From IMG/VR virus record IMGVR_UViG_2700989161_000006: a stretch of 24,501 nt of DNA. One strand, written 5' to 3'. Under the pieces are notes generated by a model that was given only the letters and a program-made list of their open reading frames with translations, made no database searches and was not told the DNA's origin. The translations under genes and the position numbers were made by a program. Positions 8,759-11,222 of this stretch are shown here, in pieces (position 1 is the first letter of the stretch; each line of letters starts with the position of its first letter). Source of the DNA: a virus (Duplodnaviria > Heunggongvirae > Uroviricota > Caudoviricetes).

Positions 8759-9127
8759 TCAGACGGCTTTGATAGTCATATCATCTGAATCAAATATTCC
8801 TGATGTATCGATATCGGTAATTCTTATTCCTTCGCTACCATCCATTGGAGGCCATCCTTCCTGACCATTTCCATCATTCCAGTCGAACTCACACACAACA
8901 CCATATGCATTTAAGTCGCTTGAAATTGCTATAAGCAGAGCATGTTGCGCCAGCATGATTAATACAGCATTTAATACAGAGCCGTGTTTATTGAGTCGGT
9001 GTTCAGAGTCTGACCAGAAATTATTAATCTGGTGAAGTTTTTCCTCTGTCATTACGTCATGGTCGATTTCAATTTCTATTGATGCTTTCCAGTCGTAATC
9101 AATGATGTATTTTTTGATGTTTGACAT
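8759..9127 (-). CDS. Hypothetical AT-rich protein (122 aa) with one long hydrophobic segment
   Basis: ATG at 9127 with GAGGA upstream; hydrophobic stretch VLNAVLIMLAQHALLIAISS; acidic C-terminus; intrinsic terminator 20-45 nt upstream. Confidence 0.55.
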   Translation of the reverse strand: MSNIKKYIIDYDWKASIEIEIDHDVMTEEKLHQINNFWSDSEHRLNKHGSVLNAVLIMLAQHALLIAISSDLNAYGVVCEFDWNDGNGQEGWPPMDGSEGIRITDIDTSGIFDSDDMTIKAV

Positions 9128-9145
9128 CTATTCATATCCTCATAG

Positions 9146-9173
9146 ATAAAAAATCGCCCTCACACTGGAGGGC
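9146..9173 (-). terminator. Intrinsic terminator (minus strand) just upstream of gene 8759..9127
   Basis: Minus strand gcccuc-cagugu-gagggc followed by GAUUUUUUAU. Confidence 0.5.
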
Positions 9174-9235
9174 AAAGAAGATTTCCAATAATCAGAACAA
9201 GTCGGCTCCTGTTTAGTTACGAGCGACATTGCTCC

Positions 9236-9263
9236 GTGTATTCACTCGTTGGAATGAATACAC
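9236..9263. repeat. Perfect 9-bp inverted repeat with 10-nt spacer
   Basis: gtgtattca (9236-9244) / tgaatacac (9255-9263); no flanking U-run on either strand, so a protein-binding site or RNA structure rather than a clear terminator. Confidence 0.5.
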
Positions 9264-9280
9264 AGAGCAGTGTTTATTCT

Positions 9281-9318
9281 GTTTTTTATGGCAAAAATAA
9301 AAGCTGCCATTAGGCAGC
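9281..9318 (-). terminator. Intrinsic terminator (minus strand) downstream of small acidic ORF
   Basis: gctgcc-atta-ggcagc hairpin (9303-9318) followed on the minus strand by UUUUAUUUUU. Confidence 0.5.
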
Positions 9319-9390
9319 CTTGTTGTTCTGTTTACCAAGTTCTCTGGAAATCATTGCCGTCGTTCGTATTGTCCACACCATTGATTTTTA

Positions 9391-9477
9391 TCAATAGTCG
9401 TAGTCATACGGATAGTCCTGGTATTGTTCCATCACATCCTGAGGATGCTCTTCGAACTCTTCAAATTCTTCTTCCAT
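9391..9477 (-). CDS. Candidate micro-ORF (28 aa, highly acidic, Tyr-rich)
   Basis: ATG at 9477 preceded by GAGGTG 6 nt upstream; MEEEFEEFEEHPQDVMEQYQDYPYDYDY; bracketed by two minus-strand terminators. Could be non-coding. Confidence 0.25.
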   Translation of the reverse strand: MEEEFEEFEEHPQDVMEQYQDYPYDYDY

Positions 9478-9587
9478 ATATCACCTCAAATAAGTGGTTT
9501 GCTGCCTAATTTCATTTTCTGGCGACCAACACAAGTCACACCCATTTCACTGCGTGGCTTGCGGTAGTAAATTAGGTTTGTTCAGAC

Positions 9588-9610
9588 AATAAAAAACCCA
9601 CCGAAGTGGG
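9588..9610 (-). terminator. Intrinsic terminator (minus strand) after gene 9611..9949 (tL1-like position)
   Basis: cccac-uucg-guggg immediately followed by UUUUUUAUU on the minus strand, starting 1 nt after the stop codon. Confidence 0.6.
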
Positions 9611-9949
9611 CTATGACCATTTTTTATTTGGATTTCGTTGGTGAGCGTGATTAACAACTCTGTGCATTACATCCTCATATTTTTCATCTTCAATTTTTTC
9701 GACATCGCGAGGAAATGGTGTTGCTAATGCTTTGTCAACTTTGTCCATTGGGTCTTCATTAATCTTATATTCAGGGCCATCATCTATAGCATTAAATCCA
9801 GGTGTTACACCGTTTTTTAATGCATATGCTATCCTTTTTTCCCATCTCGCTATTCTCCTCCTGTCTCGAGATGTAAGACCTCTATCAGATACTTTTCTGT
9901 TTTGTCCGCGGTCAGGATTAACATAAATAGTCTTTTTCACCATAAGCAT
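9611..9949 (-). CDS. Hypothetical basic protein (112 aa) immediately downstream of N
   Basis: ORF track 9611..9955 starts at TTG; first ATG at 9949, 2 nt after N stop. No family recognised. Confidence 0.45.
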   Translation of the reverse strand: MLMVKKTIYVNPDRGQNRKVSDRGLTSRDRRRIARWEKRIAYALKNGVTPGFNAIDDGPEYKINEDPMDKVDKALATPFPRDVEKIEDEKYEDVMHRVVNHAHQRNPNKKWS

Positions 9950-9951
9950 AC

Positions 9952-10257
9952 TCAATAAGCACCGTACGGTAGTTTACTGTACAATTTTATTTTTTGGACT
10001 GCATGTATTTTGTTTCCTAATGGGTTTGAATCTTTGTAATAAATACTTCTATTTTTTCGAACGACTTCTTCTTTCTTCTTGCAGCAAAGGCATCCTAGCG
10101 ATGCTGCTTTGTCTGCTCTGACGCAACCAGAGAGCTTTAGCGCAATTTTTCGCGCCAGTGCTTCATTACTGCGTCGCTCGGCAATAAGTTCTGCTCTGCG
10201 AGCTTTGTAGCGGCTTTTTGCCGTACCTTTGGATTCTTTCCAGACAATGGTTACCAT
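9952..10257 (-). CDS. N: N-type transcription antiterminator with phi21-like arginine-rich motif
   Basis: ATG at 10257 with AAGGAG 6 nt upstream; GTAKSRYKARRAELIAERR near the N-terminus matches the phi21 N boxB-binding peptide as I recall it; sits between pL/nutL and the terminator cluster. Confidence 0.7.
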   Translation of the reverse strand: MVTIVWKESKGTAKSRYKARRAELIAERRSNEALARKIALKLSGCVRADKAASLGCLCCKKKEEVVRKNRSIYYKDSNPLGNKIHAVQKIKLYSKLPYGAY

Positions 10258-10367
10258 GATGGTCTCCTTTAAGTGGCTTTGGCGCATGACGCGTCGAGGT
10301 GCTTATCTTCTCGATCGCTGTCTTGCAGCTGCAATTCGCGCCATCCCCAAAACCACTCAAGTTCTGG

Positions 10368-10407
10368 TCTCAACGGTTAGGTTGAGAGTCCGTCGATGTT
10401 AAAGAGC
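10368..10407 (-). promoter_or_regulatory. nutL (boxA + boxB)
   Basis: Minus strand: boxA GCTCTTTAACA (10407->10397), 9-nt spacer, boxB hairpin ucucaac-CUAACC-guugaga (10387->10368); same boxA and same loop as nutR. Confidence 0.55.
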
Positions 10408-10449
10408 CTGCCAATCTGTTCCGTTTGGCTTCCAGCGTCCTGCTGATGG

Positions 10450-10485
10450 CTTAAATTTAAGACTTCTTAATTTATTGGTCAAGTG
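10450..10485 (-). promoter_or_regulatory. pL promoter with OL operator
   Basis: Minus strand -35 TTGACC (10481->10476), 17-bp spacer, -10 TAAATT (10458->10453); overlapping 18-bp operator-like palindrome AATTTAAGACTTCTTAAT (10453-10470) similar to the OR operators. Confidence 0.4.
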
Positions 10486-10545
10486 TATTTTTGAAGAAAA
10501 CTTAATTTTATGGGCGTGAATTTAGTTTGTCTTTGATTTTTAACG

Positions 10546-10571
10546 GGAAATAAAAAAGGGGCGAAAGCCCC
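10546..10571 (-). terminator. Intrinsic terminator after the repressor gene (minus strand)
   Basis: ggggc-uuuc-gcccc directly after the c2 stop, followed by UUUUUUAUUU. Confidence 0.55.
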
Positions 10572-11222
10572 TTAAGGAAGGTTTGCTAGCTTGGCATCAA
10601 CGACAACGCCAATGATTTTACAGTTCCCATTGATTTCAATCATTGGGTATTGTGGATTGAGTGGTTTCAGGAATTTTCTACCGGCATCAATAACTAACTT
10701 TTTGAATGTCGCCTCGTTTTCTCCTTCAAGTTTGGCGACTACCAACTTTCCATTACGTGGTTCGACTTCTGGGTCGACGAGAATAATCATCCCCTCAGGA
10801 ATACTCAGTCCTGCCGGGGCAGTCATTGAATCGCCTTTAACGTCGAGCCAAAAAGAGTCTTCAGAACAATCTACCGTTGTGTCGTACCAGTTATCTATTG
10901 CACGCCTATGATATGGCTCTACAGCTTCCATCCAACATCCTGCGCTTACCCAACTAATTAGAGGATACGAACCTCTTGGATCATGCCTGCTGTGATAGGC
11001 AATGTTTGAAAGACTATCCTCTCCTTTCAACAGGTAATCAGGGGAGCACTGCAAAGCCTTGGCTAAGGCCAATAGGTTTTCGCCATTGGGCTCAGTTTCA
11101 GATCGCTCCCATTGGGAAATAGCAACATTAGACACGCCAACCATCTTGCCAAGGGCAGCCTGCCTAATCTTGAGTTCTTTTCTGCGAGCGCGAATACGCT
11201 CACCCATCAGTTGTGTATTCAT
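10572..11222 (-). CDS. c2: Phage repressor, P22 C2-like (LexA/S24 peptidase fold)
   Basis: 216-aa ORF; MNTQLMGERIRARRKELKIRQAALGKMVGVSNVAISQWERSETEPNGENLLALAKALQCSPDYLL... matches my memory of P22 C2 nearly residue for residue; N-terminal HTH plus C-terminal autocleavage domain (Ser in GDSM, Lys in KL). Confidence 0.9.
   Translation of the reverse strand: MNTQLMGERIRARRKELKIRQAALGKMVGVSNVAISQWERSETEPNGENLLALAKALQCSPDYLLKGEDSLSNIAYHSRHDPRGSYPLISWVSAGCWMEAVEPYHRRAIDNWYDTTVDCSEDSFWLDVKGDSMTAPAGLSIPEGMIILVDPEVEPRNGKLVVAKLEGENEATFKKLVIDAGRKFLKPLNPQYPMIEINGNCKIIGVVVDAKLANLP

Follow-up and report, generated by a model that had tools for sequence, protein, structure and literature searches.

The stretch of DNA analysed here at its full length of 24,501 nucleotides, referred to below as the window, is a mosaic lambdoid (pro)phage to which no full-length match was found in the phage collection. 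Its pL operon runs from the repressor and Cro genes (which we take to be P22-type) through a candidate pL, nutL, N, a Nun-like gene, orf28, a remnant of ral, an sRNA/terminator element, ea10 and a further terminator to cIII and a recombination module of the Erf type (Table 1). Relative to phage lambda, N is phi21-type, Nun is HK022-type, Erf replaces Red and ral is deleted. An Rfam search of the window returned three tRNAs only, all on the plus strand, at 2727-2799, 17663-17734 and 17743-17815, with no family match for the PreS region. The first of these may mark the prophage attachment or boundary region, and the other two form a tandem pair (17663-17815) within the late-regulatory region, an arrangement shared with many lambdoid and Stx-type phages.

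Table 1. Features of the pL operon of the window, listed in the direction of transcription
Feature	Position	Strand	Basis
Candidate pL promoter	10454..10482	-	TTGACC, 17-nt spacer, TAAATT; promoter scan, consensus match only
nutL	10368..10407	-	boxA GCTCTTTAAC (10398-10407), boxB hairpin TCTCAACCTAACCGTTGAGA (10368-10387); read from sequence
N-type antiterminator gene	9952..10257	-	ORF; arginine-rich motif GTAKSRYKARRAELIAERR; longest ORF would start at 10287
HK022 Nun-like gene	9611..9949	-	phrog_5632 'Nun-like transcription termination factor', E=4.8e-71, full length
Terminator after Nun-like gene	9595-9612	-	terminator scan, folding
orf28 (28 aa)	9391..9477	-	identical to lambda orf28 over aligned DNA; lambda 34271-34357
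ral remnant (18-aa ORF, MTTTIDKNQWCGQYERRQ)	9351..9407	-	alignment to lambda
Terminator just after ral stop codon	9291..9321	-	perfect 9-bp stem; terminator scan, folding
sRNA PreS (LPR1), Hfq-dependent, ~88 nt, approximate extent	9146..9233	-	5' end inferred from published size
Intrinsic terminator tL2a, 3' end of PreS/LPR1	9148..9175 (hairpin 9154-9175, T-run 9148-9153)	-	terminator scan, folding, lambda identity, bioRxiv 10.1101/2024.10.31.621285
Shine-Dalgarno GAGGA of ea10	9137..9141	-	read from sequence; 9 nt before ATG
ea10 CDS (122 aa, DUF2528 family)	8759..9127	-	ORF with ATG start, PF10800, lambda Ea10 alignment, pN/pS
Intrinsic terminator between ea10 and cIII	8711..8735	-	terminator scan; fold -9.9 kcal/mol, z -3.9
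cIII	8512..8682	-	phrog_550 'CIII', E=1e-22

The ea10 gene and its neighbours

The open reading frame between the ral remnant and cIII is, as nearly certainly as such assignments can be, the lambda early gene ea10, carried in an E. coli (pro)phage that is a lambdoid mosaic. Its product matches Pfam PF10800 (DUF2528) along the whole profile (positions 1-104 of 104, E=1.1e-46, 158 bits against a cut-off of 22), and also phrog_646, a family without an assigned function (E=3e-70), with a weak second match to phrog_35963, likewise of unknown function. In DNA, 8706-9347 of the window corresponds to lambda 33483-34124 at 97% identity, and the segment matches 326 phage records. The gene annotated as ea10 (lambdap45) in the lambda record, at 33536-33904 between ral and cIII, aligns with the open reading frame, and the two proteins are identical at 120 of 122 residues, the window protein differing at Y43H and A122V. 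Shared with lambda, besides the slot between ral and cIII, are the Shine-Dalgarno sequence and the upstream tL2a/PreS element. An earlier note on this DNA had not recognised the family; the Pfam, phage-record and protein matches supply the identification. The finding is in this respect ordinary, with ea10, the DUF2528 family, tL2a and PreS/LPR1 all previously described, and the piece that comprises ea10 and the terminator is present in 1515 of 5426 complete E. coli genomes (28%), almost always at an identity of at least 95%.

What had been singled out in the earlier note was an AT-rich gene between N and cIII, encoding a protein of 122 aa with an acidic C-terminus and a hydrophobic stretch of about 20 residues, and all of this is present. 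The GC content of the open reading frame is 38.5%, compared with 47.7% for the window, which puts it among the bottom 2% of windows of 369 bp. The last 40 residues of the protein include 9 that are acidic and 2 that are basic, and the protein overall has 22 D+E (18% of its residues), 8 K+R and a pI of 4.4. The hydrophobic stretch spans residues 50-69 (SVLNAVLIMLAQHALLIAIS), and its best Kyte-Doolittle mean over 19 residues is 2.05. Among 20 distinct ea10 alleles pN/pS is 0.08 and third codon positions hold 13 of the 19 segregating sites, from which it follows that ea10 is a protein-coding gene under selection. On the plus strand over the same region there are only two overlapping ORFs, each of 31 aa, neither of which was judged credible.

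Upstream, ral has been disrupted by an internal deletion that, in comparison with lambda, removes 103 bp out of frame and has its junction near 9372, between the repeats GGACAAT and GGGCAAT. The same deletion is present in 4 of 80 close viral loci (L006-L009), and these are the only ones whose Ea10 is 100% identical to that of the window. Just beyond the ral stop codon the window has a terminator that folds at -15.6 kcal/mol (z -3.6), as against -6 kcal/mol (z ~0) in lambda, and this strong variant is confined to the 4 loci with the ral deletion. At the corresponding spot other lambdoid loci have different good hairpins, so that the terminator position immediately ahead of PreS is a variable one.

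The Nun-like gene begins 2 nt after the phi21-type N gene, in the same pL operon, and the C-terminus of N looks divergent. HK022, as we take it, has Nun in place of N. The presence of N and Nun together may serve self-antitermination plus exclusion of lambda. On the other side of ea10, between cIII and erf, are two overlapping ORFs of 52 and 56 aa on the minus strand (8266-8515) that match phrog_2123 and phrog_1723 'recombinase' and hold the position of kil and gam in lambda.

Proposed transcription from pL and the tL2a/PreS element

Several features bear on how ea10 is expressed. The N gene has only a weak Pfam N_peptide match (E=0.0045, below the family cut-off), and its ATG at 10257 is preceded by a Shine-Dalgarno sequence, AAAGGAG. 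Assignment of boxA and boxB in nutL draws on what we take to be established knowledge of lambdoid nut sites, and the boxB hairpin and the arginine-rich motif of N are both presumably phi21-type. In the interval from N to ea10 there are three intrinsic terminators on the coding strand, after the Nun-like gene (9595-9612), after ral (9300-9321) and at tL2a (9154-9175), each scoring well in comparison with shuffled sequence, and over 8000-10700 generally 11 terminator-like sites were found where 2.6 +/- 1.5 were expected. Between 9127 and 10454 the promoter scan gave no promoter-like site on the minus strand. With an N gene, a nutL, three terminators and no promoter between, N-dependent delayed-early expression of ea10 is to be expected, and such dependence, as in the established lambda model, is plausible. 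The earlier note had drawn the same implication from the upstream terminator, and judged from the sequence it was a reasonable expectation.

Transcription would begin at pL, and at nutL RNA polymerase would be modified by the phi21-type N protein, enabling it to pass the terminators after nun and after ral and then tL2a. Being made only past tL2a, ea10 would be a delayed-early, N-dependent gene, with the polymerases that halt at tL2a yielding PreS. A further terminator (8716-8735) lies 23 nt past the ea10 stop codon, inside the segment (from 8706) that is 97% identical to lambda, and ea10 is thus bracketed by terminators. This downstream site is perhaps, on our assumption, another member of the lambda tL2 cluster.

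The intrinsic terminator that the earlier note placed some 20-45 nt upstream of the gene is there, with a stem of 8 pairs, 5 of them G-C, followed by TTTTTT. It folds at -12.9 kcal/mol (z = -3.9), none of 200 shuffles folding as well, and 20 nt separate the end of its T-run from the ea10 ATG. (An end coordinate of 9173, as given earlier, cuts 2 nt off the stem.) Hairpin and T-run are identical to the lambda site, tL2a, and the likeness to lambda takes in the entire upstream segment of ~88 nt, the spacer between ral and ea10 being essentially identical in the two. A 101-nt piece spanning the spacer (9140-9240) folds at -32.8 kcal/mol, z = -3.8. What differs is that the window lineage has its extra strong terminator, following the ral stop, ~115 nt further upstream, where the lambda hairpin is degenerate.

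In lambda the spacer between ral and ea10 encodes an Hfq-bound sRNA of ~88 nt, LPR1, since renamed PreS, whose 3' end is tL2a; it is a product of the lytic cycle and up-regulates host dnaN (bioRxiv 10.1101/2024.10.31.621285), an account restated in a 2025 review (PMC12197685). The hairpin doubles as terminator and as the Hfq-binding 3' end of PreS/LPR1. The PreS/terminator element is kept at 94-100% identity in all 78 of the close ea10 loci having upstream sequence. The search of viral contigs for related loci returned near-identical copies only, of use for counts of conservation, not for diversity. The gene and the sRNA/terminator are one conserved module, moving together. The notion in the earlier note of a dedicated gate for the downstream gene did not hold up, because tL2a is the terminator of an sRNA and because in a distant lambdoid relative the DUF2528 gene begins 3 bp after N with no terminator between. 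Calling the hairpin the terminator of the sRNA in the ea10 module is more apt than calling it a gate purpose-built for ea10.

Predicted fold of Ea10 and the question of a membrane anchor

The AlphaFold2 model of Ea10, from a 52-sequence alignment, is a very confident one, its pLDDT being 95.2 and its pTM 0.87. Its elements are beta strands at 4-11 and 15-22, helices at 28-37, 41-48, 51-70 and 74-80, a long ordered loop, and a final strand at 101-107. As modelled, Ea10 is a small, strongly acidic alpha/beta domain, in the order beta-beta-alpha4-long conserved loop-beta, and the hydrophobic stretch is predicted to be the central, buried helix of a globular domain and not a transmembrane anchor.

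A different view of that stretch, and the one behind the SieB-like reading in the earlier note, is that residues 50-69 anchor Ea10 in the membrane as a superinfection-exclusion or abortive-infection protein comparable to SieB or Rex. The Kyte-Doolittle mean of 2.05 does exceed the classical threshold of 1.6, and the pL region is lambda's home of sieB and ral. The family does not share the property, however. Among 147 non-redundant members, less than 70% identical to each other and 25-70% identical to the query, the median best 19-residue value is 1.22 and only 15% exceed 1.6; the other 85% fall short of it. The helix aligned to the Ea10 stretch contains a median of 4 charged residues in these members, with K, R and E in the hydrophobic-segment position of relatives (e.g. 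VLKMLAREIMYIQF), and pI is below 5.5 in 98% of them. Ea10 itself is acidic throughout, with no signal peptide-like N-terminus and no flanking cluster of positive residues, and the model is a compact globular domain centred on the helix. With lambda SieB and Rex it has in common a general neighbourhood and, in sequences of the lambda clade, one hydrophobic stretch, but there is no sequence similarity to them, nor any to exclusion proteins in Pfam, PHROG and PADLOC. In addition, lambda sieB is on the opposite strand, between N and orf28/ral; the window lacks sieB, its interval being occupied by the Nun-like gene on the pL strand.

Lambda Ea10 is historically an 'abundantly produced' early protein, formerly mistaken for Kil (PMC3961180). 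The charged helix of the relatives, the AlphaFold2 model, this abundance in lambda and the acidity point to a soluble cytoplasmic protein that is not SieB-like. That Ea10 is soluble and globular is very probable, and a membrane-anchored exclusion protein is correspondingly very improbable. The transmembrane reading was rejected on the family-wide hydropathy and charge statistics and the AlphaFold2 model. Peripheral association with the membrane is a separate matter and may occur, the lambda-clade helix being hydrophobic enough for it.

Conservation is highest at D22, F37, W38 and R44 and in the loop E90-G-W-P-x-M-D-G-S-x-G-I101. All of the motif EGWPxMDGSxGI and the four other residues are present in the window protein, and their frequency among the 147 members is 0.73-0.98 (0.62 for M95).

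Relatives, genomic settings and possible roles

Searches for relatives that might reveal a function were largely unproductive. No solved structure was retrieved from the PDB below E=0.85 by phmmer and profile search, nor by Foldseek with the Ea10 model, and a fold search of BFVD gave one viral protein, 24% identical, that is probably a member of the DUF2528 family. The family comprises 593 clusters at 50% identity, nearly all of them single-domain and ~120 aa. Its longer members offered no informative fusion, the one weak match, to DUF5405, being in a protein whose own DUF2528 match is below the cut-off, and the 50 most divergent members matched DUF2528 alone in Pfam. PADLOC and NCBIfam returned no match for Ea10, and there is no similarity to Ral, the Pfam and PHROG matches being limited to those given above.

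No functional study of Ea10 was found in the searchable literature, where its role 'is not fully understood' (bioRxiv 10.1101/2024.10.31.621285) and the lambda interactome includes a single two-hybrid interaction for it (PMC3224144). It is nonessential by CRISPRi (PMC10695390), insertions of IS10 and oxa in the gene are viable (PMC2327257), and (sieB-ea10)<>cat prophages exist, ea10 being routinely deleted in prophages used for recombineering (PMC3961180). The CRISPRi result, the viable insertions and the substituted prophages indicate that ea10 is dispensable.

The genomic settings of DUF2528 genes are diverse. In lambdoid pL operons the gene follows N and precedes KilR/GamL/RecT, and in Mu-like transposable prophages its place is immediately behind the MuB-like ATPase, ahead of Mu Gam/GemA/Mor. 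A P2-like phage has it after the primase, a replication module of virulent type has it between DNA polymerase A (PolA) and ligase, and a large phage has it in the early region. The common denominator is an early accessory position proximal to replication or recombination, and this early-operon placement may reflect timing and not a link to DNA transactions. Mu-like prophages of Salmonella, Serratia and Oceanobacter have DUF2528 as a regular early accessory component, and the Mu-like genes often overlap start and stop codons with small neighbours of unknown function; several (loci L002, L003 and L004, at 6001-6378, L005, L086 and L091) encode proteins ~40-50% identical to Ea10.

The recurrence of the family beside Bet/Exo, Erf, RecT, Mu Gam, PolA, ligase and primase would suit a single-stranded DNA-binding protein that aids Red- or Erf-mediated recombination or replication, and an 'ssb' label for ea10 does persist in database records. 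Primary evidence for the label was nevertheless not found in the searchable literature, and the RefSeq name is now 'DUF2528 family protein' only. There is no SSB or OB-fold match in Pfam, the predicted fold of three strands and four helices has no OB barrel, and a pI of 4.4, in a family of which 98% is acidic, makes ssDNA binding unlikely. A role as ssb is, on this evidence, quite improbable.

A connection with the neighbouring cIII has also been considered, in the form of Ea10 as a soluble mimic of the SPFH domain (HflK/HflC, stomatin) that, with cIII, tunes the FtsH-HflKC protease, which degrades CII and CIII, in the lysis-lysogeny decision. It is tempting in that HflKC regulates FtsH, the target of cIII, but a comparison by hhalign with E. 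coli HflC and HflK was negative, and most DUF2528 members are not beside a cIII. For the SPFH/Band-7 proteins at large (HflK, HflC, stomatin, flotillin, prohibitin) Foldseek gave no match and the profile comparisons no similarity, and Ea10, in contrast to them, is a 122-aa single domain without a membrane anchor, a coiled-coil extension or any sign of assembly into large rings. The chance that this idea is right is very slender indeed.

The role proposed instead is that of an abundant, dispensable accessory protein, cytoplasmic, that would bind a host or phage protein, with a target that probably has to do with DNA replication, recombination or defence. Binding as the mode of action is suggested by the acidity, the abundance, the neighbourhood and the conserved loop, and its neighbours in the pL operon (Gam, Kil, CIII and Ral) likewise act by binding proteins. 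The most conserved surface is made up of the EGWPxMDGSxGI loop, D22, F37/W38 and R44. As a statement about mode of action this is tentative. The wider explanation, in which the gene is ea10, its expression depends on N and its product is a soluble binder of a host or phage protein, is the one to which, on balance, we incline.

Within the class of host-factor binders is the narrower case of a counter-defence role, in which Ea10 would mimic DNA or inhibit nucleases or restriction, much as Ocr, ArdA or Gam do. Ea10 resembles lambda Gam, T7 Ocr and ArdA in early expression, small size, net negative charge (its pI being 4.4), laboratory dispensability and proximity to gam or ral; it is abundant, it adjoins ral and is near gam in lambda, it is near Mu Gam in Mu-like phages, and the strains in which ea10 proved dispensable in the cited studies were laboratory ones. 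Against this, no similarity in fold or sequence to those three was detected, no known DNA mimic or anti-defence protein gave a structural match, and no phenotype has been reported. The acidic share of 18% is, we presume, well short of that in Ocr-like mimics. This specific case is unlikely. A broader form, slightly less doubtful, would have DUF2528/Ea10 as an uncharacterised fold class of phage host-factor inhibitor (e.g. anti-defence or anti-nuclease), acting via the invariant EGWPxMDGSxGI loop in lambdoid, Mu-like, P2-like and some virulent phages.

Few early proteins of lambda still lack a function, and Ea10, which has no solved relative, is among them. The options are now narrower, in that it appears to be neither a membrane protein nor an OB-fold SSB and is under strong purifying selection in a family present in very different phage types. 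It is a reasonable, though non-urgent, candidate for a partner or anti-defence screen. If true, a role as host-factor inhibitor would assign a function to a gene that is among the last orphans of the lambda pL operon.
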